A DNA stretch of 64,000 nucleotides from NCBI GenBank assembly GCA_963736705.1, contig CAVTPV010000001.1, positions 485,232-549,231 on the forward strand, read 5' to 3'. Position numbers and translations under genes: made by a program. Below the pieces are notes generated by a model that saw only the letters and a list, made by a program, of their open reading frames with translations, was not told the origin of the DNA and did no database searches. Shown one piece after another: positions 40,887-63,218 of this stretch. The DNA comes from an uncultured Actinomycetota bacterium (lineage in GTDB: Bacteria; Actinomycetota; Thermoleophilia; RBG-16-64-13). The first letter of the stretch is position 1. Each line of letters begins with the position of its first letter.

Positions 40887-40916
40887 TTGACAGGTGACGC
40901 TATCTACGTATATCAT
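40887..40916 (+). promoter_or_regulatory. sigma70-like promoter with imperfect palindrome (ArsR operator candidate)
   Basis: TTGACA (40887-40892), then a 16-nt spacer and TATATC, or an 18-nt spacer and TATCAT. The dyad TATCTAC|GTATATA (40901-40914) overlaps the -10. Confidence 0.5.
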
Positions 40917-40958
40917 CAACTCTGCAAATACGGGATTGCAGGAGTGGCCTCGGTGGAT

Positions 40959-41468
40959 ATGCGCCCTCTCTTCAAGTTGCACGCTTCGGTCTGCCAAGCT
41001 CTTTCGAGCGAGCACCGCTTGGCCATCATGTACGGCCTCAAGGAAGGCGAGCGCCGGGTGAGCGACATCGCCGACGACCTGGGCATCTCCGTGCACAACG
41101 TCTCCCAGCACCTGCGCATCCTGCGGCAGGCTCTTCTGGTCAAGCCTCGCAAAGAGGGCCAGACGGTCTACTACTCCATCGCCAATCCCAAGTTCATGGA
41201 AGCCTGCGCCCTCATGCGCCAGGCCCTGCTCGAAGAGCACCAGGCCGAGGGTACGGCGCTCCACGCCGCCGCCGGGAGTGTTCGACCCCGTGGCGGCCAT
41301 GTCCACCATGTACGAGAACGGCATCGACGCGGATCACGATTCCGCGGGCAAACCGGCAACGACCCCCGAATCAGGCGCAAACGCATAACGAGCGATCAAC
41401 CGAGCAACGTTCGGACGAAAGGAAGACGATCATGGACCTCTCCACACTCAAAGGCGACAAAGTCGTAG
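40959..41468 (+). CDS. ArsR/SmtB-family transcriptional regulator (3' tail uncertain)
   Basis: LSSEHRLAIMYGLKEGERRVSDIADDLGISVHNVSQHLRILRQALLVKPRKEGQTVYYSI. The Arg-rich tail after about residue 110 overlaps the tusA start and may be out of frame. Confidence 0.7.
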   Translation: MRPLFKLHASVCQALSSEHRLAIMYGLKEGERRVSDIADDLGISVHNVSQHLRILRQALLVKPRKEGQTVYYSIANPKFMEACALMRQALLEEHQAEGTALHAAAGSVRPRGGHVHHVRERHRRGSRFRGQTGNDPRIRRKRITSDQPSNVRTKGRRSWTSPHSKATKS

Positions 41469-41677
41469 ACGCGCGCGGCACCTCCTGCCCCGGCCCCATC
41501 CTGGCCGCGAAGAAGGGCATGGCCGACGTCAAGGTCGGCGAGATCATGGAAGTGCTCGCCACCGACTCCGGCACCCAGAAGGACCTGCCCGCCTGGTCCA
41601 AGAAGCTGGGCCACGAGTACCTCGGTTTCGTCGAAGAGCCCGGCTACATGAAGCTCTTCGTCAAGAAGCTCAAGTAA
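41432..41677 (+). CDS. TusA-family sulfurtransferase
   Basis: 81 aa. VVDARGTSCPGPILAAKKGM carries the conserved CPxP active-site motif. Confidence 0.85.
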   Translation: MDLSTLKGDKVVDARGTSCPGPILAAKKGMADVKVGEIMEVLATDSGTQKDLPAWSKKLGHEYLGFVEEPGYMKLFVKKLK

Positions 41678-41701
41678 CGCACGGACGACCAAGGACCGGC
41701 C

Positions 41702-42153
41702 GTGACCGCAAGCGCGGGGTTCGCCCCCAAGATACTGGTCTTCTCGACCAACAACATCTCCGATCCGGGGATCGACCTGGCGGGTAGCTCGCATCTGCAC
41801 TACTCGCCGACCGTCATGGTCATCAGCATGCCCTGCACCAGCGGCATCCGGCCGGATTGGATCCTGTACGCCATCGAGCAGGGGTTCGATGGCGTCTTCA
41901 TCGCGTCGGACGGGGAGGAGTGCGCCTTCCTGCCCGACTGCGCGGAGCGGAGTTCGCACATCATGGCCAGCGCTCAGGAGATGCTGAAGGAGCGAGGGCC
42001 ACGAGCCCCGGCGGGTGAAGATGGCCGCCGTCTGCTCGGTGTGCGCCGACCCGTTCGTCAACTACATGGGCGAGTTCTCCAAGGCGCTCGCGGAGCTCGG
42101 GCCCTCCACCGACCGGGCCCGCGGCCGGACCGTCCGAGGAGCAGGCCGCATGA
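41702..42153 (+). pseudogene. MvhD-like (methyl-viologen-reducing hydrogenase delta-type) FeS protein, about 2 frame breaks
   Basis: KILVFSTNNISDPGIDLAG...VISMPCTSGIRPDWILYAIEQGFDGVFIASDGEECAF, then ..PRRVKMAAVCSVCADPF in another frame. One frame ends in a TGA overlapping the next ATG (ATGA at 42150-42153). Confidence 0.7.
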
Positions 42154-44916: not shown

Positions 44917-46733
44917 GCACCGAGACCGGCAAGCGGCGCATCGGCGTCTACGTCTGCCATTGCGGCGGCAACATCTCCGACTACGTCGACGTGGACAAGG
45001 TGGTCGCGGCGCTGGAGGGCGACCCGGACGTGGTGGTGGCCAAGACGGCCATGTTCACCTGCTCCGACGCCACCCAGCAGGAGATCATCGAGGACATCCA
45101 GGAGCAGGGCCTCGACGGCATCGTCGTGGCCTCCTGCTCGCCCAAGCTGCACACCTTCACCTTCCGCGAGGTGGCCAAGCGGGCGGGGCTCAGCCCCTTC
45201 CAGTACACCCAGGTGAACGTCCGCGAGCAGTGCTCCTGGACCCACACCGACGACCACGAAGGCGCCACCGACAAGGCCACCAAGCTGGTCAAGGCCGGCA
45301 TCGGCCGCACCCGGCTGACGGTGCCGCTGGAGCCGATCGTCGTGGAGACGGTGCCCAAGGCGGTCGTCATCGGCGGCGGCATCACCGGTCTGCGGGCGGC
45401 CCTCGGGCTGGCCGAGATCGGCCTCGCGCGTGTTCCTGGTGGAGAAGGAGGCGCAGCTCGGCGGCTGGGCCGCCGGGTTCGGCGAGATGTACCCGTACGG
45501 CAAGAACGGCCGGGAGCTGGTGGCCGAGCTGATCGAGAAGGTGCGCGGCAACCCGGACATCACGGTGTTCACGAACGCCGAGGTCACCGGCAAGGCCGGC
45601 AGCTTCGGCAACTACGAGGTGGCCATCCGGGTGAACGGCGGCGCCGGCGAAGCCGCGGCCGAGCGCCGAGACCATCACCGTGCGAGGCGGGCTCCATCAT
45701 CGTGGCCACCGGCTTCGACGCCTACCCGGTGGCCGAGGACGAGTTCGGCTACGGCCTGGACGGCGTGGTCACGCTGCCCGAGTTCAAGCAGCTGGTGGAC
45801 GGCGCCGAGCGGCCCGCTCGCAGTACGACGGCAAGCCGGTCAAGAACATCGTCTACATCTACTGCGTGGGCAGCCGGCAGGACGCGGACGAGGTGGACGA
45901 CGCCCACGAGTACTGCTCCCGCTACTGCTGCACGGCCGCGGTGCACGCCTCCCTCGCAGGTGGCGGCCAAGCCCGGGCAAGCGTCCACCAGTACCACCTG
46001 CACCGCGACATCCGCACCTACGGCAAGTACGAGATGCTGTACGACGAGTCGCTCAACAAGGGCTCCGTCTACCTCAAGGTGCCCGACGACGAGCCGCCGG
46101 TGGTGACGCGCGACGACGAAGACCGGCCGCCTGCTGGTGACCACCCGCGACCTTCTGAGCCGAGGGCGAGGAGATCGAGATCCTGGCCGACCTGGTGGTG
46201 CTGGTCACCGGCATGGTGCCGCGCGAGAACGACGACCTGATCAAGACCCTCAAGCTGCCCGTGGGCAAGGGCGGCTTCTTCAACGAGATCCATCCCAAGC
46301 TGCGCCCGGTGGAGACCGTGGTCGACGGCGTCTACATCTGCGGCACCTGCCAGCAGCCGAAGAACTCGGCCGAGGCGGTCGCCTCCGGCCTGGCGGCGGT
46401 CACGCAGAGCGCCTCCATCCTCAAGCGCGGCTTCGCCGAGCTCGACCCGCTGGTCGCCATGGTCGACACGGACCTCTGCACCTGGTGCGGCACTGTGCCT
46501 GGAGGCCTGCCCCTACGACGCGCCCCGGCAGGTGGAGGAGGACGGCAAGAAGGTCGCGCTTCATCGACAAGACCGCCTGCAAAGGCTGCGGCGGCTGCGT
46601 GCCCGGTCTGCCCGGTCAAGACGCCATCGACCTCGAGGGCTACACCGACGCCCAGATCCGGGCCATGATCGACGGCCTGCTGTCGGAGCCGGCGAATGCC
46701 CGGATGCGTGACCGCAGGAGGTGCTCGGCATGA
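44913..46733 (+). pseudogene. hdrA: HdrA-like heterodisulfide-reductase subunit A flavoprotein, about 8 frame breaks
   Basis: ATG 44913 after GGAGGTG. IGVYVCHCGGNISDY, AVVIGGGITG, YIYCVGSRQ, CSRYCC, GVYICGTCQQPK, and a C-terminal CKGCGGCVPVCP-like ferredoxin motif. The stop overlaps the next ATG (ATGA at 46730-46733). Confidence 0.75.
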
Positions 46734-51102: not shown

Positions 51103-51777
51103 ATGCGGGTGCTGGTAGTCGAAGACGAAGAGAGAGTGGCCTCCTTCATCGCGAAGGGGCTCGAGGGCGCCGGCTACGCGACCGAGGTGGCGAGCAGTGG
51201 CGCCGAAGCCCTGGATTCGTTCCGGGAGCGGGGCGCCGATCTGGTCCTCCTGGACGTCGGCCTTCCCGATATCGACGGGTTCTCCGTACTCAAAGAACTG
51301 CGCAAGGTCGACCAGGAGACCCCGGTGATCATGCTGACCGCGCGGGGAGACGTGGCTTCCCGGGTGCAGGGACTCGACCTGGGCGCTGACGACTACCTGC
51401 CCAAACCGTTCGACTTCGACGAGTTGGTGGCCCGCATCCGGGCTCAGCTCCGTCACAGCGGGCAGCCGCAGGCGTCCGTGCTGCAGGCCGGCGATCTTCA
51501 GCTGGACCTCAAGACCCGGCGCGCCCAGCGCGGCGAACGCGGCACCGACCTCACCTCTCGCGAATTCGCCTTCCTGGAGTTCCTCCTGCGGCACGAAGGC
51601 CAGGTGCTGTCCCGCTCTCAGATCCTCGGCAGCGTCTGGGGATACGGGTTCGATCCGCAGAGCAACGTGGTGGACGTCTACGTGGGCTACCTGCGCGGCA
51701 AGCTTGACCGGCCCGGAGAGACGACCATCATCGAGACCGTCCGGGGAGGCGGCTATCGCCTCCGGGTACCCGCTTGA
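51103..51777 (+). CDS. OmpR-family response regulator
   Basis: Receiver domain (VLVVEDEE...DLVLLDVGLPDIDG...MLTARG) plus a winged-helix output domain (LTSREFAFLEFLLRHEGQVLSR...VDVYVGYLRGKL). Confidence 0.9.
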   Translation: MRVLVVEDEERVASFIAKGLEGAGYATEVASSGAEALDSFRERGADLVLLDVGLPDIDGFSVLKELRKVDQETPVIMLTARGDVASRVQGLDLGADDYLPKPFDFDELVARIRAQLRHSGQPQASVLQAGDLQLDLKTRRAQRGERGTDLTSREFAFLEFLLRHEGQVLSRSQILGSVWGYGFDPQSNVVDVYVGYLRGKLDRPGETTIIETVRGGGYRLRVPA

Positions 51778-53150
51778 GGCGCCGCCTCACCCTTTGGTTC
51801 GTCTTCGCGGTCCTGCTCATGGCTGTTCTCGGGGCAGCCGCTATGTACGCGACCCTGTCCCATCAGCTCCATGACGGCCTGGACTCGCGCTTGGAGCAAC
51901 AGCTCACCCGGTATCAGGAGACGGCTTCCACCGCCACCGACGAGCAGTCCCTGATAGACATCACCCGCTCCTTCCTCTCGGGCAGCAAGGCCAACCCTCT
52001 GCGGCAGAACGGTCTCGTGCTGACACTCCTCACCCAGAGCGGCTCCGTCATCTCGAGCTCGGACGCCATCCATCCGGAGGAACTCTCGCAGAGCGCCCAG
52101 GTCCTCGCGACCGGTAAGCCCTTCCTGGCAGACGCGCGGCTGGGCAGCGGGGAGTACCGCGTGGCCGGCACCGCTGTGAAGAACGGCACCGAGGTGGTGG
52201 CCGCGGTCATGATCGCCGGCTCTCTCTCCGAAGTGACCTCGACGCTCAACAGCCTGCTCCTCCTGCTCGTCGTGGGAGGCATCATCGGATGCGCCGTTGT
52301 GGGCCTCGGCACCTGGTTCCTTCTGGGCCGCGCCCTGGAGCCGGTGCGCCGGATCACCCGCACCGCCGCCGCCATCTCCCGCGAAGACCTGTCCGAACGC
52401 ATCGGCTACCACGGTCCCAAGGACGAGATAGGCGATCTGGCCAGCACCATGGACGGCATGCTCGATCGCATCGAGACGGCATTCTCAGCCCAGGAACAGT
52501 TCATCTCCGACGTATCCCACGAGCTGCGCACGCCCCTCACCATCGTGAAGGGCCACCTTCAGGTGCTGGACCGGGTCGAGGAGCCCGACCCACGGCTGGT
52601 CAAGGCCGAGCACTCGCTCGTGATCGACGAACTGGACCGGATGAACCGGCTCATCGCCGACCTGCTCACCCTCGCCCGGGCGGGGCGCGGGGACTTCCTG
52701 CGGAAGGAGCGGCTCGACCTCGACCTGTTCGTCAGCTCGCTCGCTGCCCAGGGGCAGCATCTGGGTGAGAGGGAGTGGAAGGTGGACGGACTTCCCGGTG
52801 GCGCCATCGAGGCCGACCAAGACCGCCTGACCCAGATCTTCCTCAACCTGATGCAGAACGCAGTGGCTCACACGACGCCCGGTCAGACGATCGCCCTCGG
52901 AGGCTCGCGGGACGATGGTGCAGCCAAGGTGAGCTTGTGGGTGCGGGACGAAGGCGAAGGGATGGGCGAAGAGGTTGCCCGCCACGTGTTCGAGCGCTTC
53001 TATCGCGGCAAGGGCGACACCGCGGGGGGCCGCGTCGGCCTCGGTCTCGCGATCGCGAAGGCGCTTGTGGCGGCCCACGAGGGGACCATCTCGGTGGAGA
53101 GCTCGCCCGGGCGCGGAGCCACCTTCACCGTGACGCTTCCGAGCGCCTGA
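51774..53150 (+). CDS. sensor histidine kinase (two TM segments, HAMP, HisKA, HATPase)
   Basis: TTG start overlapping the RR stop. H-box FISDVSHELRTPLT. N/G boxes LMQNAVAHT, DEGEGM, GLGLAIAK. Confidence 0.9.
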   Translation: MRRRLTLWFVFAVLLMAVLGAAAMYATLSHQLHDGLDSRLEQQLTRYQETASTATDEQSLIDITRSFLSGSKANPLRQNGLVLTLLTQSGSVISSSDAIHPEELSQSAQVLATGKPFLADARLGSGEYRVAGTAVKNGTEVVAAVMIAGSLSEVTSTLNSLLLLLVVGGIIGCAVVGLGTWFLLGRALEPVRRITRTAAAISREDLSERIGYHGPKDEIGDLASTMDGMLDRIETAFSAQEQFISDVSHELRTPLTIVKGHLQVLDRVEEPDPRLVKAEHSLVIDELDRMNRLIADLLTLARAGRGDFLRKERLDLDLFVSSLAAQGQHLGEREWKVDGLPGGAIEADQDRLTQIFLNLMQNAVAHTTPGQTIALGGSRDDGAAKVSLWVRDEGEGMGEEVARHVFERFYRGKGDTAGGRVGLGLAIAKALVAAHEGTISVESSPGRGATFTVTLPSA

Positions 53151-53302
53151 GCCCCGGCGCGGCGGCCCGCCGCGCTCTCCTGGACACTCTAAGGGCTTTC
53201 TCATCCGCCGTTAATGATGGCCTCATCGGCACGCCCGATAGTAGTAAGTGTCGGGCAAGACCGACAAGCCATGCACAAGGAATGTGATGCAAGGAGGCAG
53301 TA

Positions 53303-53749
53303 ATGCTTAAACGGAAATGGGTGATCATCCTCGCGGTGGTCGTCCTCTTCACACTGGTCGTAGCTGGCACGGCTCTGGCCGGCGCCGGCCCGCAGTCGAG
53401 GACCAACAGCACCGTCGTGCCGAGCAGTTCCACGACAGGCGTACCGAGCACCGCGACCACGTGCTCCCCCAGCACCACCTGCACGCCGAGCACCCTGAGA
53501 GGAGCCGCGGTGGCGCCGGCGGCAGCCACCAGCACCGCCAGCACGCTCCGCACTCAGACCCAGCTGCAGGACGAGACCTGCGACGGCACCTGCACGCCGA
53601 GCACCCTGCGGACGCAGACCCAGTTGCAGGACGAGACCTGCGATGGCACCTGCGATCCGACGAGCGCCACGGCACAGGACCAGTCCAGGGATCATTCTGG
53701 CGTCCGCGATGGTAGCGGTGACGGCAACAACTACGCCCACGGCAACTGA
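53303..53749 (+). CDS. secreted Thr/Ser/Cys-rich repeat protein
   Basis: AAGGAGG then ATG 53303. Signal peptide ...VVAGTALAGA. Repeated STLRTQTQLQDETCDGTC units; Asp/Gly-rich tail. Confidence 0.6.
   Translation: MLKRKWVIILAVVVLFTLVVAGTALAGAGPQSRTNSTVVPSSSTTGVPSTATTCSPSTTCTPSTLRGAAVAPAAATSTASTLRTQTQLQDETCDGTCTPSTLRTQTQLQDETCDGTCDPTSATAQDQSRDHSGVRDGSGDGNNYAHGN
53541..53660 (+). repeat. tandem 60-nt coding repeat (2 full units; an 18-nt partial copy at 53480-53497)
   Basis: Units 53541-53600 and 53601-53660 differ at about 9 positions. TGCACGCCGAGCACCCTG is exact at 53480 and 53591. Confidence 0.85.
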
Positions 53750-53915: not shown

Positions 53916-54383
53916 CTACTGCCCGCCGGCGCCGCGGATCTTGGCGACGGCGTCAACGGCGTGTTCTGAGAGTCGCTGCATGGAATTCGCCCGCTGCGAC
54001 AGGGAATGAGCCATCACCTCGAGAGCCTCCAGGCCCTGCTGCGTGATGAGGTAGACCCGCCTGCCCGGCCCGGACTCCGGCGTCTCCCACGACGAGGTGA
54101 CGAGTCCCTCTTCCTCCATGGCGCGCAGGAGCCGGTACATGCTGCCGGCGTCGATGCACACCAGTTCCGAAGCCAGAGCATCGAGCTGGTCGACGAGTTC
54201 GTAGCCGTGGGAGCTCGATTCGGCGAGCGACGAAAGTATCGCCACCTCCATGACCGACCTCCGGTAGCGCCCGCCGCCCGCTCCGCCTCCGCCGGCCCAG
54301 CCTTCGGCGGCGCCACCACATGCGGCGCGCCCCGCCCCCTGCCTGCCTCGACCGCGAGGTCCAGTATCGTCAGTACTAGCCAT
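53916..54383 (-). CDS. PadR-family transcriptional regulator with a Gly/Arg-rich N-terminal extension
   Basis: AILSSLAESSSHGYELVDQL...GSMYRLLRAMEEEGLVTSSWE...GRRVYLITQQG. The ATG overlaps the upstream stop by 8 nt. Confidence 0.75.
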   Translation of the reverse strand: MASTDDTGPRGRGRQGAGRAACGGAAEGWAGGGGAGGGRYRRSVMEVAILSSLAESSSHGYELVDQLDALASELVCIDAGSMYRLLRAMEEEGLVTSSWETPESGPGRRVYLITQQGLEALEVMAHSLSQRANSMQRLSEHAVDAVAKIRGAGGQ

Positions 54384-54774
54384 CGGCTGACACCCGGCCT
54401 CTCTCCTGCTTGCTGACTGGTCTGAACACGAAATCGTCTATCGCGTTGCGAAGAGCAGTCGCCGCGTGGGCGGAACAATGCTCCTTCGCGGCCGGCAACC
54501 CGCCCAAAGCGCGCACGATATCGACGTCGTCGACCTGGTACGCGTCTTCGAGCGTCATGCCCGACACCATCTCGCTCATCATACTGCAGCAGGCTATCGC
54601 TGCCGGGCATCCTTGCACCTTGTACTTCACTTCGCACAAGCGCTCGTCGCCGATCCGTATCCACACCTTGAAGAAGTCGCCGCACCCGGGATCCCCGACC
54701 GTCCCCACGCCGTGCGGATCCTCTATCTCCCCGACATTGCGAGGGTTGAAGAAGTGATCCAGCACCGGGGCCAC
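54376..54774 (-). CDS. NifU/IscU-like Fe-S scaffold N-terminal-domain protein
   Basis: GTG 54774 after GGGAG gives MAPVLDHFFNPRNVGEIEDP...GDPGCGDFFKVWI...VQGCPAAIACCS...EHCSAHA. Confidence 0.75.
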   Translation of the reverse strand: MAPVLDHFFNPRNVGEIEDPHGVGTVGDPGCGDFFKVWIRIGDERLCEVKYKVQGCPAAIACCSMMSEMVSGMTLEDAYQVDDVDIVRALGGLPAAKEHCSAHAATALRNAIDDFVFRPVSKQERGRVSADG

Positions 54775-54809
54775 GTAGACTCCCGGCCGGCGGGGGACGT
54801 CGACTGGAT

Positions 54810-56033
54810 CTAGTGGTCGCACACGTTATCCCCGGTGACGAGCTGACCGGCCAGGTAGTCGCCGACCACCGTTGCCGGCTCCATGGCCGGCGCCCCGGTG
54901 ATCACCGTGATGCCCTGCTCGACGAACAGTTCATGGGCCCGCGATCCCATCCCCCCGGCGATGATGAACTGGGCGCCTCGGGCCGCCAGCCAAGCGGGCA
55001 GCTTGCCGGGCTCGTGCACCGGCGCCGTCACCATGGTGGTGTCGAGCAGCTGCTTGGAGAGGGCATCGACATCGATGAGGGCGAACTCGTCGCAATGGCC
55101 GAAGTGCTGGCAGAGCACGCCGCCGGTGACGGGCACGGCGAAACGAGTGACGGATTCGTTGATGGGAGCAGCGGCCACGGGGGCCTCCTTTTCCAGATCC
55201 ATGGCGAGGATCGGCTCGAGCGCTTTGGCGAACTCACGGGCGGCGGGGCTGGACGGGTGTAGATGAACGAACGACACGCCTGCATCGCCGGAACTGACGA
55301 TCGCCGGGTCGAGCGGGATGCTGGCGAGCAACGGGACGCCGGCCTTCTCCGCCATGGCCGCGCCGCCACCCTTGCTGAAGACGTGCGTCACTTCCCCGCA
55401 ATGGGGGCAGACGAAGCCGGCCATGTTCTCGACGACCCCGAGGACCTTCAGGTCGAGCATCGAGCAGAACTTGATCGAGCGGCGGACGTTGGCGAGCGCC
55501 GTCTCCTGGGGAGTCGTCACGATGATGGCGCCGTCCAACACGCCGATCGCCTGGCAGACTGCCAGCGGCTCGTCGCCGGTACCGGGCGGGGAGTCGACTA
55601 TGAGGTAGTCGAGTTCGCCCCACTCCACTTCGCCGAGGAACTGCTGGATGGCCACGGCCTTCATGGGCCCGCGCCACACGACCGCTTCATCCTTCTCCCC
55701 GAGCAGGAACCCGATGGACATGACCTTGAGGTTCGAGCCGACCTCGATGGGCACGAGCGTCTCGCCGTCGACCGCCGGGCGGCTGCCCTGAAGCCCGAGC
55801 AACTGGGGCACGGTGGGGCCGTGCAGATCGACGTCCAAGAGCCCCACCTGCTTGCCTTCCAGCGCCAGCGAGGTGGCCAGGTTGACCGAGACGGTGCTCT
55901 TGCCCACGCCGCCCTTGCCCGACAGCACGACGATCTTGTGCTTGATACGGGCCATCCTCTGTCCGATCGCGTCGTCCCGCTCGTCGTGCGGGTGCGAGCA
56001 ATCTGTTTCCCCGTGCGAACAACTCATACTCAT
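54810..56033 (-). CDS. Mrp/ApbC (NBP35)-type Fe-S carrier ATPase fused to a C-terminal NifB/NifX-family domain
   Basis: ATG 56033 overlaps the upstream stop (ATGA). His/Cys-rich N-terminus, KIVVLSGKGGVGKSTV, FVCPHCG. C-terminal RFAVPVTGGVLCQHFGHCDEFALIDV...FIIAGGMG. Uninterrupted. Confidence 0.8.
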   Translation of the reverse strand: MSMSCSHGETDCSHPHDERDDAIGQRMARIKHKIVVLSGKGGVGKSTVSVNLATSLALEGKQVGLLDVDLHGPTVPQLLGLQGSRPAVDGETLVPIEVGSNLKVMSIGFLLGEKDEAVVWRGPMKAVAIQQFLGEVEWGELDYLIVDSPPGTGDEPLAVCQAIGVLDGAIIVTTPQETALANVRRSIKFCSMLDLKVLGVVENMAGFVCPHCGEVTHVFSKGGGAAMAEKAGVPLLASIPLDPAIVSSGDAGVSFVHLHPSSPAAREFAKALEPILAMDLEKEAPVAAAPINESVTRFAVPVTGGVLCQHFGHCDEFALIDVDALSKQLLDTTMVTAPVHEPGKLPAWLAARGAQFIIAGGMGSRAHELFVEQGITVITGAPAMEPATVVGDYLAGQLVTGDNVCDH

Positions 56034-56960
56034 GCCTCCATCAGCATTGCCTGGATTGAATCCCACATTTCCGCTATCTGCCGGGCCACCGGGCTCCGGC
56101 CGTATTCGATGATGCTCTTGCCATCGGTCTGCGCGCGAGCGACGGCGAGGTCGTAGTCGAGTCTCGCGACCACCGGCGCGTCCCACTCGACGCAGCGCTT
56201 CTCTATCTCTGCCGCCATGTCGGGGTTGATGTCCCACCTGTTGATGCACACGGCAAGCGGCCGGCCGAATCCCTTCGCCAACTCGACCACTCTCTGCAGG
56301 TCGTGCAGCCCGGAGACGCTCGGCTCGGTTACCAGGAGCACGAGGTCGGCGCCCGTCACGGACGCGATGACCGGGCAGCCGATGCCCGGAGGGCCATCGA
56401 CCAGCACGAGCGGAGTGCTCGCCTGCTCCGCCAGCTCCCGCGCCCGCTCCCTCACGAGACGTCACCAGCTTCCCGGAGTTCTCGCCCCCGGCGAACAAGC
56501 GGGCATGCACGAGCGGCCCATGCCGGGTATCGGAGAGGAAGAGTTCGCCCCTTTGCGGTTCGAACGTCTCGATGGCCGCGTCCGGGCATGCCAGTTCGCA
56601 CAGCCCGCAGCCTTCGCACGCAAGCGGATCGATCGAGTGGATCAAGGCGCCGTCTCGGTCCTTGCCGTTCGCCGGCCCCAGCAGGACGGCCTCGAACCGG
56701 CAGAGTAGGCGGCAGTCCCCGCACTGGCTGCAGCGGTCCGCGTCGATCCGGGCCTGATACCCGGAGAAGAACGGCTCCTTCTTGAGCCGGACCGGAGCCA
56801 GCACGAGATGCAGGTCCGGCGCGTCGACATCACAATCGGCCAGCACGGTGTGGTCAGCCAGGGAAGCGAGGGCAGCGATGACGCTCGTCTTGCCCGTGCC
56901 CCCCTTGCCGCTCAGCACCACCAACTCTTTCGGCTTCGCTCCCGGCGGACACGCGCTCAT
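56030..56960 (-). pseudogene. MinD/CooC-like P-loop ATPase with inserted 2x[4Fe-4S] ferredoxin domain, frame break near 56455
   Basis: ATG 56960 (ATGA overlap). LVVLSGKGGTGKTS, CSQCGDCRLLC, CEGCGLCELACP. C-terminal part in ORF 56030..56455. Confidence 0.75.
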
Positions 56961-57875
56961 CGGGCCACCTCCTCGCCATGATGGTGCGCACATCCATGTG
57001 CGGCGGACGCGCTTCTCGAGGCCGCCGATGGGCCCATGGCGAGCAGCGTGCGACCCAGGCCGCGCAGACCGGCGGTGAACCCTGCTTCGACCCCCGCGAG
57101 GGTCTCGCCACGCGATGACGCTTCCGCGATGCCGCGATCCTCCGGGATCTCCAGCAGAGACGGGTATCCGCTGCTCCCGGCAGTACCGCGCGACACCGTC
57201 GTCGCCGATCCCCGCCCGGTTGATGACGACTCCGAAGGGGACGCCGAGTTCGCGCACCGTCTCCACGGCAAGCCGCAGATCGTGCAGTCCGAAGCGAGTG
57301 GGCTCCGTCACCAGTATCGCGTGGTCGCAGTCCTTCATCGCCTCGACCGCAGGGCACGCCACTCCGGGAGGAGCATCGATGATGACGAGATCGAGCGGCG
57401 GAGCCCCGGTCAGGTCCTTGACCTCCCGGATCACCGGAGCGGACCGCGCCTCGCCCACGTTCAGGCTCCCCCACCTCAGGTAGACGCCTTGGACGAAGCC
57501 CGCTCCGACGCCACCTATCTCCCGGCTCCCCTGGGCGATCGCCACCTCAGGGCAGGCGTAGGTGCAGACGCCGCAACCGTGGCAGAGTTCGGGCAGCAGG
57601 AGCGGGCGGCCGGGAAGAGCGACCAGCGCGTGGAACCGGCAGGCGCGAGCGCACGCGCCACATCCGGTGCAGATAGCGTCGTCGATGTCGGGGACCATGG
57701 TCGTCACCGGGGAAGTGGCGGCGAAGGACGGCCGCAGGTACAGGTGGCAGTTGGGCTCCTCGACGTCGCAATCGAGAAGCCCGACCGCCGCTTCTTCCGC
57801 CATCACCAGCGCCAGATTGACCGCCACCGTGGTCTTCCCGGTGCCGCCCTTGCCGCTGGCTACAACGATCTTCAT
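56957..57875 (-). pseudogene. MinD/CooC-like P-loop ATPase with inserted 2x[4Fe-4S] ferredoxin domain, frame break near 57170
   Basis: ATG 57875 after GAAGGAAGG. KIVVASGKGGTGKTT, CTGCGACARAC, CHGCGVCTYACP. C-terminal part in ORF 56957..57271. Confidence 0.75.
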
Positions 57876-57892
57876 TCCGCGAGACCTTCCTT

Positions 57893-58252
57893 CTACCAAT
57901 GGCCGTCGACGTTGGCCGACCCGGCCGGCAGGAACTGGCCGTGATCGAACTTGTCCAGGTTCTCACTCACGGTACCTTCCGGCGCGAGGTAGACCCTGAT
58001 GCCGGCGGCCTGCAACGCTCGAAATGCCTTCGGGCCACAATTGCCCGTGATGACCGCCTCAGCCTTGTTGTCGATGACGTTCTGCGCGGCCTGGATGCCG
58101 GCGCCTTCGGCCACGTTCATCGCCACCGCGTTGTCGAGGGCGGTGAAGGTGCGTAGCGGCGTGTCTACGAAGAGCAGGTACTTGGCCCTGCCGAACCGAG
58201 GATCGAACGGGCTGGAGAGTTCAGGACCGGTGGACGTGATGGCCAGCTTCAT
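57893..58252 (-). CDS. NifB/NifX-family (dinitrogenase Fe-Mo cofactor-binding-fold) protein
   Basis: MKLAITSTGPELSSPFDPRFGRAKYLLFVD...AVITGNCGPKAFRAL; 119 aa. Confidence 0.8.
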   Translation of the reverse strand: MKLAITSTGPELSSPFDPRFGRAKYLLFVDTPLRTFTALDNAVAMNVAEGAGIQAAQNVIDNKAEAVITGNCGPKAFRALQAAGIRVYLAPEGTVSENLDKFDHGQFLPAGSANVDGHW

Positions 58253-58742
58253 GGGTTGCTCCTTCTGATCGAGATGCCTTGCTTACGAGCCGGTTCGGCA
58301 CCGGCTTCTTCGACCCATACCTCCGCGCCTCCGCCGGCCCATCCCCCGCTGCCGCTGAGCCGGATCGAGACCGGCCGGAGCGGCCCTTTCCGGCGCATTC
58401 CCGCCGGTCTCGAACGTCGAGGACGAACGTGAGAAGGCCATAGACCCCGGAGATCAGCCTTTCGACGGTCTCCAGAGGCCGACTGGTGGACGGTGGGGAA
58501 ACCCCCGGCCGCGCTGGGGGCGGCGCCTGTTCTCGGCCGGGGGTCAAGGAAGAGGGCCCATCCAAGACGATGCTGACGGACCGGATGGCGCCGGTCATGC
58601 AGATCGCGGCGCAGCGGCCACAGTCTATGCACAGCGCCTGGTCTATCACCGCCGAGTTGCCGTTGATCGAGATCGCCTGGCGCTCACATGCGTCGAGACA
58701 AAGACCGCAACCCGAGCAAAGAGTACTATCAACGTAAATCAT
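58221..58742 (-). CDS. 2x[4Fe-4S] ferredoxin-domain protein with a Gly/Arg-rich tail (3' end uncertain)
   Basis: MIYVDSTLCSGCGLCLDACE...CIDCGRCAAICMTGAI. All three frames stay open downstream. An alternative frame ends in a TGA overlapping the next ATG at 58249-58252, so a frame break is likely. Confidence 0.55.
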   Translation of the reverse strand: MIYVDSTLCSGCGLCLDACERQAISINGNSAVIDQALCIDCGRCAAICMTGAIRSVSIVLDGPSSLTPGREQAPPPARPGVSPPSTSRPLETVERLISGVYGLLTFVLDVRDRRECAGKGRSGRSRSGSAAAGDGPAEARRYGSKKPVPNRLVSKASRSEGATHEAGHHVHRS

Positions 58743-58748
58743 GTTCCC

Positions 58749-58836
58749 GCCATCTAAGTGCTAATCGCATCTATATGATGACGGCGCAAGCCCTGCTTGT
58801 CAATGGGTTGCCATCTAGATGCTGTTGGCATATAGT
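58749..58836. promoter_or_regulatory. divergent promoter region with three CATCTA-type sites
   Basis: Plus strand: TTGCCA (58808-58813), 17-nt spacer, TATAGT (58831-58836). The perfect palindrome CATCTAGATG (58812-58821) lies in the spacer. Minus strand: TTGACA (58798-58803). Related sites are GCCATCTAAGTGCT (58749-58762) and CATCTATATGATG (58868-58880). Confidence 0.45.
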
Positions 58837-58861
58837 CGGCGAAGGTCAAGGGAGGTTCAAC

Positions 58862-59613
58862 ATGATCGCTGAGGAGATCCGGAGAAGCCGTAGAGCGGGG
58901 CGGCAGCCGAACGCACCGTCGCCGACGTCCGCATCGGGCTGGGCTACACCGCCGTTATGCTGGACGACGGAGGCGTGGGAGTCGCCTACACCTTCCATGG
59001 AGATGCCAGAGGCGGCTGCTCGGTGTTCACCGGGAGCAGGCCGATCGCCGGACGGCCGGCGCAGGACGTGCTGCGGTATCTCGGCTCCGCGGACCGGATA
59101 GAGTGCGCCGTGGGCTTGGCCGTCGCCAACGCGCTCGCGAACCGGCCTTCGCCCGGACAGAGCGAGGGCGACATCCTCGACCTTCTGCCGGTGCGCGCCG
59201 AGGACCGGGTCGGCATGGTGGGCTTCTTCGGGCCTTTGGTCGCTCCGCTCGAGAGACGGGCCCGCGAGTTGCTCATCTTCGAGCGCGATCCGGGCCGTTC
59301 CCAGCGGACGCTGCCGGCCGAGGAAGCCCTGCGAACGCTGCCTCAGTGCGACGTCGCGGTGATCACGTCGACCGCGCTGATCCTGGGCGAACTGGACGGC
59401 CTGCTGGAAGCCACGCGAGATTGCCGCGAAGTGGCGCTCGTCGGCGCATCCACTCCGCTCATCCCGGATGTCTTCGCCCCGCTCGGGGTCACCCTGTTAT
59501 CGGGTATCACGGTGACGGACGGTCCCGGTATCCTTCAGATAGTGAGTGAAGGTGGCGGCATGGGATTCTTCGGTGGCCGGGTGCGCAAGGTCAATGTGAC
59601 GGTCGCCGGCTGA
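58862..59613 (+). pseudogene. DUF364/DUF4213 (putative metal-chelation Rossmann-like) protein, frame break near 58950
   Basis: GGGAGG then ATG 58862 (MIAEEIRRS...). The conserved ...VRIGLGYTAVMLDDGGVGVAYTF... continues in ORF 58957..59613. Confidence 0.65.
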
Positions 59614-59637
59614 GGCGGGAGGCTGCTGGACGCGGAT

Positions 59638-60787
59638 ATGACCGGGCTGATCGACATCGGGTCCACTACGGCGAGGCTGGTCCGTAACGGTCTTCGGTAC
59701 CGGTGGCTGCGCGTCACCGGCAGACCGGGCAGACCTCAAGCCATCAGCCTCGAGATCACCCACCGCTGCGTCTGCAAGTGCGTGATGTGCAATATCTGGC
59801 GCGTCCCCGATTCCGTCTCGGACCTTGATGGCGAAGCGTGGCTCCGGCTTCTGTCGAGTGACGCTCTGGGCGATCTGCGGGAGCTGGATATCACCGGGGG
59901 CGAACCGTTCCTGCGCGATGATCTTGCTCGCGCTCGTCCAGGGGGTCTGCGAACGGAAGCGGAGCCATCTGAAGCGGCTGCGCTCGATAGCCATCACCAC
60001 CAACGGGGTGCTCGCCGGCCACGTGGTCCAGACGGTCGAGCGGATGCTCCCCTTCATCAAAGAGGCGGGGCTGCAGCTGGTCGTGGTGTGCGCGCTCGAC
60101 GCGGTCGACGAGACGCATGACCGCATCCGCCGGTACCCCGGCGCCTGGGAGGCCGTCGACAGCTGCATCACCGGTCTGGTGGCGCTCCGGGCCGCGTCTC
60201 CCGAGTTGATCATCGGGGTGAAGACGACGGTCCTACCGGACAACGTCGGGCAACTCGACCGGATCTCCGCCTATGCGGCCGAGCGCGGTCTGTTCACCAT
60301 CATCTCGCCGGGCATCTTCACCGGCGGCCGCTACCTGAATCCCGAGAAGAAGGACCGCCTTTCGCTGGCGCCGCAAGACCGGGAGTCACTCGCCCGCTTC
60401 TACGAAGGCTCGGCGTTCAAGTGGAGCTACCACGCGGATGCGCTGGCCCGCTTCCTGCGGGGCGGCCGGATGAGCAAGCCCTGCACCTGCGGCTTCAACT
60501 ACTTCTTCGTCCGCAGCACGGGAGAGCTGCACCTGTGCCCGCTGGCGGGCGAGTCGGTCGGCAACATCGGCGAGACACCGGTCCGGGAGCTGCTGCGTTC
60601 GGCTCGCGCGCGCAGGGCACGGGCCCGCACCGGCGGGTGGCCGGAATGCCTGCACTGCACCGAGCCGGGACTGGAACGATACTCGCTGCCCTACGAGGGC
60701 TTCGCCTATCTGCGCGTGCTTCTCACCAAAGGGCCCCGGTCGTTCCTCGAACTCCACCGCCACCTCGGTCTGGACAAGTACGTGTAG
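59638..60787 (+). pseudogene. radical SAM protein with a Cys-rich C-terminal (SPASM-like) region, frame break near 59930
   Basis: LEITHRCVCKCVMCNIW (CX3CX2C), LDITGGEPFLRDD, then ORF 59825..60787 with ITTNG and C-terminal KPCTCGFNYFFV...LHLCP...CLHCTEPG. Confidence 0.75.
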
Positions 60788-60804
60788 CGGGGGCGCGCCC
60801 GCGC

Positions 60805-61974
60805 CTACATCCCCGGGATGCGCGGCACCTTGCCGAGCTTCCGCAGCCGGTAGTACGTACCCCAGCTCTTCTTGAGCCAGTGCCCGACGATGGGCATGGG
60901 GATGAACATGGCCCGCTTGTCGTTGCGATAGATGAAGCCGGCGCCGTTCCCCATGTCCATGACGCAGAGGATGCAGACCTCGTCCACATAGCTGCCCCGC
61001 TCGCCCCGCCCGGTGATCTTCCGTTCGATGTCTTCGGCCGCCGTGCGCGCCATGACCTCCGCGATGTGGCCCTGCTTGGCCTTCCAGTCGGGCCCTTCCA
61101 GCGCCGCCACGTCGCCGATGGCGTACAGCCAGGGATGCCCCTGCACCTCGCACGCGCCGTCGGTCTGCACGAACCCGGCCTCGTTGAGCGGCAGGTCTGA
61201 CGCTTTGATGACGCCGTGTCCGTCGCCGGCGGCGATGAACATGAACAGGTCGGCCTCGATCCTGGTGCCGTCCTCCAGGGTCACCGCGCCCTCTTCGAAC
61301 CCGGTGATCTTCTTGCCGGTGTACGAGCGGATCCCGAGGGACTTGAACATCTTGTCCATCATCTGCACGGCCTTCTCGCCCATGCGGATGCCCGGCTTGG
61401 GCATGGGAGCGAAGAAGACCAGATCGAACTTGTCGCGCAGTCCCAGCTTCTTGAGGCGATGGTGCACGTTGAGCAGGAACTCGAACGCCGGTCCGCCCCG
61501 CACTCCGCTGCTGTCGTTGGGATTGCCGCCGAACCCCACCGCGATGGTCCCCTTGCCTTTGGCGATCAAGGCGTCGAGACGCTCCTTCACGGTGACGCTC
61601 TCTTCCGGGGCGCCGCAGATGGAGAGCACGTGCTCTTTGCCCTTGTGCTGCATCTTGTGCGCACCGAGAGCCAGCACGAGATAGTCGAAGTCGGAGCGGA
61701 CGCCACCGGTCGCGAGGGTGAAGCTCTTCTCTGCGCCGCTCACCGCCACGACCTCGTCCACGGTGACGCTGAACCCGTGGGCCTTGGCGATCTCGTGAAG
61801 GCTGATCTTGACCCGGTCGAATGAGCGTTCGCTCGTGGGGATCCAGATGGCCAGCGGATAGACGAACAGGTAGTCGCGGTCGGACACCACCTCCACCTGG
61901 AGGCCCTTCTTGCGCAGTTCGATGGCGGCTTCCACTCCGCCGATACCGCCGCCCAGCACGATCGCCTTCTTCAT
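60805..61974 (-). CDS. NAD(P)/FAD-dependent oxidoreductase (SQR/NDH-2-like, lacks the KCxxAP cysteine)
   Basis: Met at 61974: MKKAIVLGGGIGGVEAA...YLVLALGA...LYAIGDVA. VRGGPAFEF sits where the SQR-like gene at 37920 has IKCPVAPLEF. 389 aa, uninterrupted. Confidence 0.8.
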   Translation of the reverse strand: MKKAIVLGGGIGGVEAAIELRKKGLQVEVVSDRDYLFVYPLAIWIPTSERSFDRVKISLHEIAKAHGFSVTVDEVVAVSGAEKSFTLATGGVRSDFDYLVLALGAHKMQHKGKEHVLSICGAPEESVTVKERLDALIAKGKGTIAVGFGGNPNDSSGVRGGPAFEFLLNVHHRLKKLGLRDKFDLVFFAPMPKPGIRMGEKAVQMMDKMFKSLGIRSYTGKKITGFEEGAVTLEDGTRIEADLFMFIAAGDGHGVIKASDLPLNEAGFVQTDGACEVQGHPWLYAIGDVAALEGPDWKAKQGHIAEVMARTAAEDIERKITGRGERGSYVDEVCILCVMDMGNGAGFIYRNDKRAMFIPMPIVGHWLKKSWGTYYRLRKLGKVPRIPGM

Positions 61975-61999
61975 GGCGCTGCTCTCCTTCAGCTCCCCA

Positions 62000-62040
62000 T
62001 TGCATTCTGCAAGGAGCCAAGTATAATGCACAATCGTGCA
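62000..62040 (+). promoter_or_regulatory. near-consensus sigma70-type promoter plus downstream dyad
   Basis: TTGCAT (62000-62005), 16-nt spacer, TATAAT (62022-62027). The dyad TGCACAATCGTGCA (62027-62040) covers the predicted transcription start. Confidence 0.55.
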
Positions 62041-62064
62041 AAACAACCAGTCCGGAGGGACGGT

Positions 62065-62802
62065 TTGGCCCGGCCAGCGAAATGGCGTTGTCTTGAGTGT
62101 CGTCCCGGTTCGAAGCTGTTCGGCCCGGTGGGAGTACCCGCCCGGCAACTCGAGAAGCTGAGGATCTCGTTCGACGAGCTCGAAGCGCTGCGCCTGCTCC
62201 ACATCGAAGGGGCCACGCAGGCGGAGGCCGGCCGGCGGCTGGGGGTGTCGGCGTCCACGGTCAGCCGGATGGCGGACCGGGCCCATCGCCTCATCACCGA
62301 GGCGCTGGTGGCCGACAAGGCCGTGTGTGTGGAGGGCGGACCGGTCACGGTCGTGCGCGTGAGCGGCAGCGGAAACCCCGGCGATCCGAACACGGGTTTG
62401 GAGTCGGGTGAAGATGAGAATGAGACCTCAGAGCAAGGAGACAGGATGATCGTCGCAGTCCCCTATCTACAGGGCCAGGTCAACGCCCACTTCGGCAGCA
62501 CGCAGAGCTTCATGGTGGCCGAAGGCGTCGACGGCAAGATCGAGAAGACCACCGTGTTCGAAGTGCAGGGCATGCAGCACAACCACTCCGGTATTGCCGG
62601 CTTCCTCAAGGAGCAGGGCGTCGAGGTCATCCTCGCCGGGGGCATGGGCGGCCCGATGCAGCAGGCCCTCAAGATGCAGGGCTTCGAACTCTACTGCGGC
62701 GTCCAGGGCCCGGCCATCGCGGCGGTGGAGGCGTTCCTCCGCGGCGAGATCGAGCAGTCCGAGAGCACCTGCGGCCACCATCACGGCGAACACGAACACT
62801 AG
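62065..62802 (+). CDS. DUF134 (UPF0251) DNA-binding domain continuous in frame with a NifB/NifX-family domain
   Basis: GGAGGGA then TTG 62065: (M)ARPAKWRCLECRPGSKLFGPVGVP...LRISFDELEALRLLHIEGATQAEAGRRLGVSASTVSRM. An acidic linker follows. An internal AAGGAG+ATG at 62446 starts MIVAVPYLQGQVNAHFG...VILAGGMGG, with a His-rich tail. No stop between the two domains. Confidence 0.7.
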   Translation: MARPAKWRCLECRPGSKLFGPVGVPARQLEKLRISFDELEALRLLHIEGATQAEAGRRLGVSASTVSRMADRAHRLITEALVADKAVCVEGGPVTVVRVSGSGNPGDPNTGLESGEDENETSEQGDRMIVAVPYLQGQVNAHFGSTQSFMVAEGVDGKIEKTTVFEVQGMQHNHSGIAGFLKEQGVEVILAGGMGGPMQQALKMQGFELYCGVQGPAIAAVEAFLRGEIEQSESTCGHHHGEHEH

Positions 62803-62816
62803 AAAGGGTAGCGGCA

Positions 62817-63218
62817 ATGGCAGACATGGAAGTCTTCTTTCCCGGCGGTAAGCGCGTGTACGCGAACTACGGCGGGTTCACCATCGAGACCGACCAGCCG
62901 GTGCGCGGCGGCGGCGAGGGGACGGCGCCGGCGCCGTTCGACCTGTTCCTGGCGTCCATCGGCACCTGCGCGGGCATCTACGCCCTGGGCTTCATGCAGC
63001 AGCGCGGCATCGACCCGGCGGGCTCCAAGCTCATCATGCGGCCACAGTACAACCCGGCGGTGGGCCTGATCGACAAGATCGATCTGGAGCTGATCACCCC
63101 TCCCGGCTTCCCGGAGAAGTACCGCGACGCCATCATCAACTCCATGGAACTCTGCGCGGTCAAGAAGCACCTGGCGCAGCCGCCCGCGTTCTCGGTCACG
63201 ACGGTCGCCGGCTCGTAG
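62817..63218 (+). CDS. OsmC-family peroxiredoxin-like protein
   Basis: 133 aa. GGGEGTAPAPFDLFLASIGTCAGIYALGF...SMELCAVKKHL carries the two OsmC-type Cys. Confidence 0.85.
   Translation: MADMEVFFPGGKRVYANYGGFTIETDQPVRGGGEGTAPAPFDLFLASIGTCAGIYALGFMQQRGIDPAGSKLIMRPQYNPAVGLIDKIDLELITPPGFPEKYRDAIINSMELCAVKKHLAQPPAFSVTTVAGS

Follow-up and report, generated by a model that had tools for sequence, protein, structure and literature searches.

The question raised by the stretch of DNA studied here is what a dense set of genes for Fe-S proteins, MinD-like ATPases and NifX-like domains does where nitrogenase genes are missing. The stretch, hereafter the window, comprises 64,000 nucleotides of a contig from an uncultured Actinomycetota bacterium (CAVTPV010000001.1, positions 485,232 to 549,231, assembly GCA_963736705.1). 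The locus in question, at window positions 53916-62802, consists of an operon on the minus strand (53916-58742) and a group of neighbouring genes. An earlier analysis that used the letters of the DNA alone (the sequence-only reading) described it as a metallocluster-handling locus within a neighbourhood without assigned function. Here, we report that the operon is most probably the Actinomycetota version of the orange protein (ORP) operon of Desulfovibrio vulgaris, with additional genes for a ferredoxin, a NifU-type scaffold and a PadR-family regulator, and with a DUF364 gene as a partner. We assign to this reading a probability of about 0.78.

The genes of the window were compared by profile searches with Pfam for domains, with NCBIfam at its equivalog cutoffs, and with the Protein Data Bank (PDB) for the best match. 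The genes named in the sequence-only reading all exist, with the coordinates given below and the Pfam domains attributed to them. By Pfam, the Nitro_FeMo-Co (Di-Nase) domain occurs three times in the region, a fold that these three domains have in common with NifX, NafY and the C-terminal domain of NifB. What sets the window apart from the settings of those proteins is that it holds neither a NifH-type ATPase nor nitrogenase genes, and that no NifB model is among the NCBIfam matches listed for its radical S-adenosylmethionine (radical SAM) enzyme. The NifH model of NCBIfam yields 20.5 bits against a cutoff of 394. Because deviant Walker A ATPases are limited, across the 64 kb, to the two MinD-like proteins and the Mrp protein of the operon, there is no NifH-type gene, and the claim that nitrogenase genes are missing holds.

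A probable orange protein operon in Actinomycetota

The ORP cluster of D. vulgaris (DVU2103-DVU2109) encodes Orp3, Orp4, Orp5, OrpR, Orp7, Orp8 and Orp9, the last also known as MrpORP. The members of the complex are Orp3, Orp4, Orp5, Orp8 and Orp9; Orp3 and Orp4 are P-loop ATPases with two [4Fe-4S] ferredoxin motifs each (PMC6345978). MrpORP, a product of Mrp-Di-Nase fusion, an event that occurred several times, is recognized by the signatures GKGGhGK[ST], CXXC, CXHFGHC(E/D) in the Di-Nase domain and a terminal CDH (PMC6345978). Two kinds of cluster bind to it, a bridging [4Fe-4S] and, on the Di-Nase domain, a [3Fe-4S], and it transfers Fe-S clusters in vitro to aconitase and to apo-Orp3-Orp4-Orp8 (PMC6345978).

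Four proteins of the operon correspond to this set. The Mrp protein (54810-56033), in which an Mrp/NBP35 P-loop domain (ParA/NUBPL) is fused to a C-terminal Di-Nase (Nitro_FeMo-Co) domain, matches the NCBIfam equivalog NF041136, "iron-sulfur cluster carrier protein MrpORP", with 509.7 bits (cutoff 450) over positions 1-365 of 365. It contains all the published motifs of MrpORP, namely GKGGVGKS, CPHC (residues 209-212), CQHFGHCD (308-315) and the terminal CDH. The stand-alone Nitro_FeMo-Co protein (57893-58252; PF02579, 68.9 bits) is a homologue of the orange protein (Orp8): its best PDB match is 2WFB, the 'ORP' of D. gigas (E=1.3e-19, residues 2-111), and the two proteins are 119 and 120 amino acids long, respectively. 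The same protein is 56-66% identical in six relatives of the host, and an exact-sequence look-up returned no record for it. The two ATPases, which we denote MinD1 (ATPase A, 56957-57875) and MinD2 (ATPase B, 56030-56960), each carry a 2x[4Fe-4S] ferredoxin domain inserted into the ATPase domain (Pfam CbiA/ParA and Fer4), with a GKGGTGKT Walker A motif and two CxxCxxCxxxC motifs apiece. By the published description, they match the Orp3/Orp4 type (DVU2103 and DVU2104) and are assigned to it here as putative counterparts. The MrpORP equivalog, the orange protein structure match and the Orp3/Orp4-like ATPases together identify the operon as an ORP complex cluster, so that the neighbourhood thought to be without assigned function has a described counterpart in the Orp3/4/8/9 cluster of D. 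vulgaris.

The remaining three genes of the operon distinguish it from that cluster. The leading gene (58221-58742) encodes a ferredoxin (Pfam Fer4) with the motifs CSGCGLCLDAC and CIDCGRCAAIC, in which two [4Fe-4S] sites precede a conserved hydrophobic helix and a tail rich in Gly and Arg; the versions in relatives are 197-216 amino acids long and have the same layout. An IscU/NifU-N type Fe-S scaffold (54376-54822) matches Pfam NifU_N with 121.6 bits (cutoff 22). The final gene (53916-54383) encodes a PadR-family regulator (66.9 bits) with a Gly/Arg-rich N-terminal extension. The resemblance of this extension to DUF5320, which is lacking in the orthologue of one relative (L002) and reaches 17.8 bits (cutoff 27), is compositional only.

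Gly/Arg-rich low-complexity stretches recur in ORP loci, in the window at 58221-58480 and 54250-54383 and elsewhere at L002:6138-6776 and L164:360-695. They form the ferredoxin tail after the hydrophobic helix (LSGLFxxxxFxLD), the N-terminus of PadR, and separate DUF5320 proteins, the last in seven other loci as well as in L164.

Compared with D. vulgaris, the window shares the orange protein, two MinD-like ATPases with two [4Fe-4S] motifs each, an MrpORP with all its motifs, an anaerobic host, and a DUF134-type gene and further Di-Nase domains nearby. It differs in having a single operon instead of two divergent ones, in the added Gly/Arg-tailed ferredoxin and IscU/NifU scaffold, in a divergent DUF364 partner, in the missing separate Orp5 gene, and in a host that belongs to Actinomycetota rather than Desulfobacterota. 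With the Mrp/NBP35/ApbC carriers (ApbC, Nbp35-Cfd1, Ind1), the Mrp protein of the window shares the deviant Walker A motif, the CXXC for a bridging [4Fe-4S] cluster and a carrier role. Unlike them, it has a C-terminal Di-Nase domain with Cys/His motifs, reaches 226.6 bits with the ApbC model against a cutoff of 348, and has a dedicated operon that encodes its clients. Unlike in carriers of FeMo-co (iron-molybdenum cofactor), MrpORP's Di-Nase domain holds [3Fe-4S] and not FeMo-co. In the small IssA-type thioferrate storage proteins of Pyrococcus, a Di-Nase domain is joined to a C-terminal tail of low complexity. Similar proteins, with a NifX domain and a tail, are present in 10 ORP-core loci, whereas in the window it is the ferredoxin and PadR, and no Di-Nase protein, that bear the Gly/Arg tail.

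Several observations weigh against our reading. The NifU-type protein falls short of the NCBIfam equivalog cutoffs (NifU_clost, 142.4 bits against 187.9; iscU, 98.3 against 192.4), and there is no cysteine desulfurase gene near the operon. The operon contains no separate gene for a small protein like the [2Fe-2S]-binding Orp5, the only further Di-Nase domain being that of the DUF134 fusion at 62026-62802, and for Orp5 and Orp7 the family identities are taken from secondary descriptions. There is no match in the window to an OrpR-like sigma54 activator, although seven other ORP loci have one. The Desulfovibrio literature gives the role of the complex only as "putatively cell division" (PMC6345978); we found no later literature on the bacterial ORP complex. 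For the actinobacterial members, we infer complex formation, the metal content of the orange protein homologue and DNA binding by PadR.

The claim that nearly every junction in the operon has an overlap of ATGA or longer stands for four junctions: the ATGA overlaps of MinD1/MinD2 (56957-56960) and MinD2/Mrp (56030-56033), and the longer ones of Mrp/NifU (13 nt) and NifU/PadR (8 nt). It fails for the junction of the orange protein homologue and MinD1, which is a 17-nt gap, and the 32-nt overlap of the ferredoxin and orange protein genes may be a frame artefact.

Conservation of the core and its companions

A genome scan with the Mrp fusion found its closest homologues, with 68-80% identity, in metagenome-assembled genomes (MAGs) of uncultured Actinomycetota/Gaiellales. 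In all, 46 loci with the core of MinD-ferredoxin ATPases were collected, 26 from genomes and 20 from metagenomes, and six of these (L012 and L001-L005) are the Actinomycetota relatives referred to here. The orange protein, the two ATPases and MrpORP, together with PadR, are encoded in the same order in all six. The ferredoxin and NifU are retained in five; the sixth (L004) has no match for either. Thus, the view of the minus-strand operon as a conserved unit for metalloclusters is borne out by gene order.

Outside this clade, the core of an orange protein-type gene, two MinD-like ATPases and an Mrp protein (with or without Di-Nase) is found in Lentisphaerota (including Victivallis), Planctomycetota (including Sedimentisphaerales), Syntrophorhabdus, Bacteriovoracaceae, Spirochaetales (Spirochaetota), Bipolaricaulota and several archaea. 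Among the 26 genome loci, genes of the orange protein type are near the core in 21, NifU in 14, DUF134 in 12, and DUF364 and PadR in 6 each; the six loci with PadR, which is the final operon gene in every relative, all belong to the Actinomycetota clade. With 12 of the 20 metagenome cores also accompanied by NifU, the scaffold is a recurrent accessory gene of ORP-type operons across phyla. In the Syntrophorhabdus locus (L010), a DUF134-Di-Nase fusion heads the ORP operon.

Several other families recur beside ORP cores. Two of them, with examples at L127:19351-20250 and L018:12018-12989, are absent from the window: an MBL-fold hydrolase (22 of 46 loci) and a radical SAM protein that ends in a winged-helix domain (20 of 46). 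DUF89, TrmO_N and DUF1847 are each present in 7-8 ORP-core loci. In two relatives, the gene for a flavoprotein similar to CoA-disulfide/persulfide reductases with a rhodanese domain (CoADR-rhodanese) separates DUF364 from the ORP operon, and this family recurs in nine ORP-core loci (L002:4270-5976, L005:1362-3122 and L015:13498-15210, among others), which hints at a link to sulfur or persulfide.

DUF364 as a partner and the question of molybdenum and tungsten

The gene divergent from the operon (58862-59613, plus strand, start approximate) encodes a DUF4213+DUF364 protein (70.8 and 131 bits, respectively). Among the loci from a metagenome scan with this protein, 34 have flanking sequence of at least 5 kb, and 20 of these contain the MinD-ferredoxin ORP core, often in the same operon. 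The order is Mrp-DiNase-NifX-MinD-MinD-NifU-DUF364 in L108 and DUF364-NifX-MinD-MinD-Mrp-DiNase in L139. In such diverged lineages, DUF364 and NifU are encoded within the operon and on its strand, with L110, L123, L125 and L131 as further examples. Given the share of loci with a core and this in-operon placement in diverged lineages, DUF364 is a real, facultative partner of ORP that recurs across phyla, and the association of DUF364 with the operon made in the sequence-only reading is thereby upheld. We found no paper that states such a link.

The protein of the window resembles Dhaf4260 (PDB 3L5O; E=9e-15) and shares its DUF4213+DUF364 architecture with that protein and with Orf5. Orf5, the sole characterized DUF364 enzyme, cyclizes methyl-SAM: it is the 4-methylazetidinecarboxylate (MeAZE) synthase of bonnevillamide biosynthesis, encoded in a Streptomyces cluster, and works together with a cobalamin (B12)-dependent radical SAM C-methyltransferase (PMC12930334). 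Downstream of DUF364 in the window lies a gene for a radical SAM enzyme as well (59638-60787, plus strand; Radical_SAM and SPASM in Pfam, family length ~381 amino acids), and we compared the two pairs. They are not the same, given that MeAZE formation uses a B12-dependent radical SAM methylase (PMC12930334), whereas the enzyme of the window is of the SPASM type, with Radical_SAM and SPASM domains only, and its adjacency to DUF364 is not conserved (none of seven contexts of its homologues). The DUF364 subfamily of the window travels with ORP operons instead.

The company of DUF364 bears on the question of which cluster the system handles. An alternative is that the ORP proteins with DUF364, and with NifU where present, handle sulfide clusters of molybdenum or tungsten (thiometallate or heterometal clusters) and not Fe-S clusters only, for example, to buffer or deliver them in sulfidic cells. 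The orange protein of D. gigas carries a [S2MoS2CuS2MoS2] cluster (cited in PMC6345978), and DUF364 genes adjoin molybdate/tungstate transporters, with one showing co-fitness with nifH in Methanococcus maripaludis. Many ORP-type operons contain DUF364, genes for molybdopterin oxidoreductases are found inside or beside the locus of L164, of the P0002 contig and of P0021, and sulfur-handling genes recur nearby, including CoADR-rhodanese in the nine loci mentioned above. However, no Mo/W transporter family recurs in the vicinity of the 46 ORP cores, and the window has no molybdopterin oxidoreductase homologous to that of L164. The Mo-Cu cluster of the orange protein, moreover, may form adventitiously. 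The only biochemically characterized DUF364 enzyme has a derivative of SAM, and no metal, as its substrate (PMC12930334). The support drawn from orange protein chemistry, the transporter link, nearby molybdoenzymes and sulfur genes is circumstantial, and we consider a Mo/W role unlikely. A broader form of this idea, in which ORP cores, DUF364 and the IscU-type scaffold would make up a single bacterial and archaeal module that builds or buffers Mo/W sulfide clusters in sulfidic anaerobes, with DUF364 supplying the enzyme for metals or small molecules that the orange protein system lacks, is likewise a speculative proposal that we do not expect to hold.

A predicted PadR/operator switch

The operon and DUF364 are separated by a divergent control region of 119 bp (58743-58861) with promoters and operator-like motifs. 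Two sigma70-like promoters lie back to back in this region, one reading into the operon (minus strand, 58803-58775) and one into DUF364 (plus strand, 58808-58836); the scan gave 3 sites against 0.9 expected. The operator-like sequence CAT(A/C)TAGATG is present three times, at 58751-58760 (degenerate), 58768-58777 and 58812-58821. One of these copies is the perfect palindrome CATCTAGATG, and one covers the -35 box of the promoter that reads into DUF364. Within the 64 kb, exact matches to the motif are confined to the control region, with none upstream of the radical SAM or DUF134 genes. In the loci of relatives, the exact motif is found solely just upstream of the ferredoxin gene, usually as two tandem copies at a spacing of 17 bp, with a conserved TTGAC box on one side and the start codon on the other. 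In L164, a copy is located upstream of a NifX-C_GCAxxG-DUF364 unit. The operator was recognized solely through comparison of the upstream regions of relatives; an inverted-repeat finder with a seed of 6 returned nothing in either of the two intergenic regions.

The placement of the motif in the window, in the relatives and in L164 suggests that PadR is presumably a repressor, and hence an autorepressor, of the operon that acts via CATCTAGATG, and that DUF364 would belong to its regulon. Of the two promoter dyads proposed in the sequence-only reading, that at 58749-58836 spans these conserved repeats. The other, at 62027-62040, is a 5-bp stem on a start codon, and we discarded it as an operator candidate, such stems being no more frequent than in shuffled sequence.

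The orp operons of Desulfovibrio are controlled by sigma54, integration host factor (IHF) and OrpR, an Fe-S PAS redox sensor, whereas the window has PadR, sigma70-like promoters and the palindromic CATCTAGATG operator. Without an OrpR-like activator, regulation in the window differs from that of the model system, and control by OrpR and sigma54 is a feature of regulation in the model organism, not of the ORP complex. OrpR-like PAS-sigma54 activators are encoded beside ORP cores in some non-actinobacterial loci (L014:2125-3525 and six others). Together with the restriction of PadR to Actinomycetota, this distribution indicates that the regulator has been swapped between lineages. The locus is not a new kind of system; its predicted PadR/operator switch, a simple one, offers a cleaner regulatory handle on ORP.

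Proposed working of the complex

A tentative scheme can be derived by analogy with the biochemistry of the D. vulgaris proteins. The NifU-type scaffold would supply Fe-S clusters to an MrpORP dimer, with a bridging [4Fe-4S] cluster held on the CXXC motifs, and MrpORP would then load the ferredoxin inserts of both ATPases. The two ATPases would form a complex with the orange protein homologue, which might hold a non-covalently bound metal-sulfide cluster. PadR would repress the operon and DUF364 through CATCTAGATG operators that overlap both promoters, in place of the sigma54/OrpR control of Desulfovibrio.

For the ORP complex, the literature proposes a role in cell division, while the biochemistry points to handling of metalloclusters. 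Under the former proposal, the MinD-like ATPases would position the division machinery or the chromosome, as suggested for Desulfovibrio, and the metalloclusters would serve as redox sensors. It gains from the polar localization of MrpORP, seen as a GFP fusion in D. vulgaris cells, and from the membership of the ATPases in the MinD/ParA superfamily. The ATPases are, however, far from the division proteins themselves: for the two proteins, minD_arch gives 73.8 and 59.6 bits (cutoff 201.75) and minD_bact 42.6 and 44 bits (cutoff 212.9). Moreover, every conserved partner is a protein of metalloclusters (NifU, Di-Nase domains, ferredoxin and DUF364), and no division genes are among the recurrent neighbours. 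We therefore consider a division role for the operon of the window very unlikely. The ORP core is widespread well beyond sulfate reducers, and what steadily accompanies it is an Fe-S scaffold and DUF364 rather than genes for division.

Frame interruptions in the window

The reading frames of four genes are interrupted, a feature that went unreported in the sequence-only reading: MinD1 near 57160 (RIPV / LLEIPEDRG), MinD2 near 56459 (GKLVT / LVRERAREL), DUF364 at its N-terminus near 58895, and the radical SAM gene near 59925. The ferredoxin tail is probably a fifth case, with the true stop near 58249, so that the 3' end of this gene is uncertain. Breaks at this density, four to five in 8.9 kb, could mean that the locus is decaying and that the interrupted MinD, DUF364 and radical SAM genes are true pseudogenes.

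The comparison with relatives speaks against decay. In L001-L005, the MinD genes, and DUF364 where present, run unbroken across the break sites with 59-68% identity: MinD1 is a single frame over residues 1-273 of 299 (59-67% identity), and MinD2 is a single frame as well (60-64%). An intact radical SAM homologue (P0001) is 96% identical to the repaired protein of the window and covers 100% of it. Both flanks of each break are thus 59-96% identical to intact homologues, and they contain no stop codons. The density of breaks is equal or higher in other parts of the window: intact open reading frames (ORFs) of relatives map onto the 41-47 kb region (40900-46710) with at least eight frame switches, one of them, a 718-amino acid ORF of L002, onto 44922-46706 in frames 3, 2, 3, 1 and 3. 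The closest relative, L012, a MAG with very long contigs, has breaks of the same kind at other positions. Because relatives read through the break sites, an almost identical intact radical SAM gene exists and other parts of the window are equally broken, the interruptions are window-wide assembly indels, not gene decay. Pseudogenization specific to this locus is accordingly rejected as extremely improbable, in view of the different break sites of L012, the window-wide breaks and the intact relatives. The assembly behind the window, which lies on a contig of 630 kb, is prone to indels, so that any ORF-based reading of the window needs frame repair. The G+C content of 64-70% also accounts for many spurious ORFs.

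Neighbouring genes outside the ORP set

Downstream of the radical SAM gene, on the minus strand, lies a gene for an SQR/NDH-2-like flavoprotein of 389 amino acids (60805-61974; Pfam Pyr_redox_2, 84 bits). It is followed on the plus strand by a fusion of a DUF134 (UPF0251) DNA-binding domain to a Di-Nase domain (62026-62802), which heads a DUF134-NifX-OsmC unit with OsmC at 62817-63218. In the sequence-only reading, these genes were joined with the operon, DUF364 and the radical SAM enzyme into one dedicated cluster-assembly or carrier pathway that would span the whole 8.9 kb.

This broader reading draws on L164, a related genome in which all the genes lie within ~10 kb despite insertions and rearrangements, with identities to the window of 75% for DUF134-NifX, 64% for DUF364 and ~65% for the radical SAM enzyme. 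Further, the adjacency of DUF364 and the radical SAM gene is kept on two short, very close contigs (L112 and L154), one radical SAM homologue has a small Nitro_FeMo-Co gene directly upstream, and DUF134 genes often head ORP-type operons (the 12 of 26 loci given above). Yet, co-conservation fails in the broader sample. The window-type radical SAM and SQR-like genes are near none of the 46 ORP cores (and thus none of the 26 from genomes), and no DUF364 or ORP gene is present in the seven contexts of radical SAM homologues; recurrence of both genes with an ORP locus is seen in a single related genome, L164. The six Actinomycetota relatives have no radical SAM, SQR-like or DUF134-NifX gene within 10 kb, and the operator motif is missing upstream of the radical SAM and DUF134 genes.

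The arrangement in two other genomes points the same way. In P0123, the genes for a response regulator, a histidine kinase and a hypothetical protein (RR-HK-hyp) are directly followed by the SQR-like and DUF134-NifX genes, with nothing between them. This defines a variable slot between RR-HK-hyp (51103-53749 in the window) and the SQR-like module (60805-63218) that is empty in P0123, is occupied in the window by the ORP operon, DUF364 and the radical SAM gene (53.9-60.8 kb), and in the P0002 contig holds a molybdoenzyme operon, PadR and the radical SAM gene where ORP would sit. In L164, the ORP operon, DUF364, a molybdoenzyme pair, the radical SAM gene, the SQR-like gene and DUF134-NifX-OsmC-HMA are together, and RR-HK has moved elsewhere. 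The large neighbourhood is thus partly conserved inside a narrow clade, not beyond, and we regard a single pathway across the 8.9 kb as distinctly unlikely. Nor is there support for the suggestion that the locus serves the other Fe-S enzymes encoded in the region: the targets shown in D. vulgaris are the ORP proteins themselves.

We instead read the locus as a lineage variant of a known system, with a single operon, the PadR/operator switch, the added ferredoxin and NifU, and DUF364, that lies beside two separable modules. By genomic context, the radical SAM gene is an unrelated neighbour, and the SQR-like and DUF134-NifX-OsmC genes form a separate conserved module. In the latter, the SQR-like gene diverges from its partner DUF134-NifX in P0123, L164 and the P0002 contig, the DUF134-NifX fusion belongs to a highly conserved family, and OsmC(-HMA) lies downstream of it in P0123 and L164. 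The module (60805-63218) may be a unit for sulfide, persulfide or metal stress under the control of the DUF134-Di-Nase protein. The best PDB match of the SQR-like protein is the SQR of Aquifex (E=3.9e-22). It had been described as cysteine-less, which is incorrect: the protein has Cys120, Cys275, Cys334 and Cys337, and C120 and C337 align with C124 and C347 of the Aquifex enzyme, so that two of the three SQR cysteines are kept and the equivalent of C156 alone is missing. It is not the CoADR-rhodanese flavoprotein of ORP loci, to which it has a weak local match (E=8e-4 over 91 residues).

On the other side of the operon, genes for HdrA-like, FlpD and ArsR-type proteins (40900-46710) lie ~7-13 kb upstream of the PadR end. 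In two relatives, such genes are found within ~2 kb downstream of PadR (L002:12784-18750 and L005:10781-16617). In the window, genes for a Fer4 membrane protein and the RR-HK pair are inserted between this set and PadR.

The radical SAM enzyme belongs to a tightly conserved family in Actinomycetota and Desulfobacterota and has no characterized relative; its best NCBIfam match reaches 56 bits against a cutoff of 500, and its best PDB match is PqqE (E=3.5e-6). NifB, MoaA, AhbD/NirJ and tungsten-cofactor maturases were rejected as identities (37-56 bits in NCBIfam against cutoffs of 284-500), as was the winged-helix-tailed radical SAM protein that recurs in ORP loci, to which the enzyme has no significant similarity (blastp E=2.1). 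Its contexts in Actinomycetota vary; two include a molybdoenzyme, and one includes a small Nitro_FeMo-Co gene. In Desulfobacterota, it is part of a multi-radical SAM/GT2/MoaA-like/ThiS/ThiF cluster. This cluster, which we recognize as no described pathway, is conserved in Desulfobacterales (L087:1-11143 and L088:1-11295). It comprises, first, two Pup-ligase-like genes, a 727-amino acid radical SAM protein, an ORF of 59-61 amino acids and a GT2 glycosyltransferase, and then a 383-amino acid radical SAM protein, the radical SAM/SPASM enzyme of the window type, a MoaA-like radical SAM protein, ThiS-like and ThiF-like proteins, and a DAO oxidoreductase.

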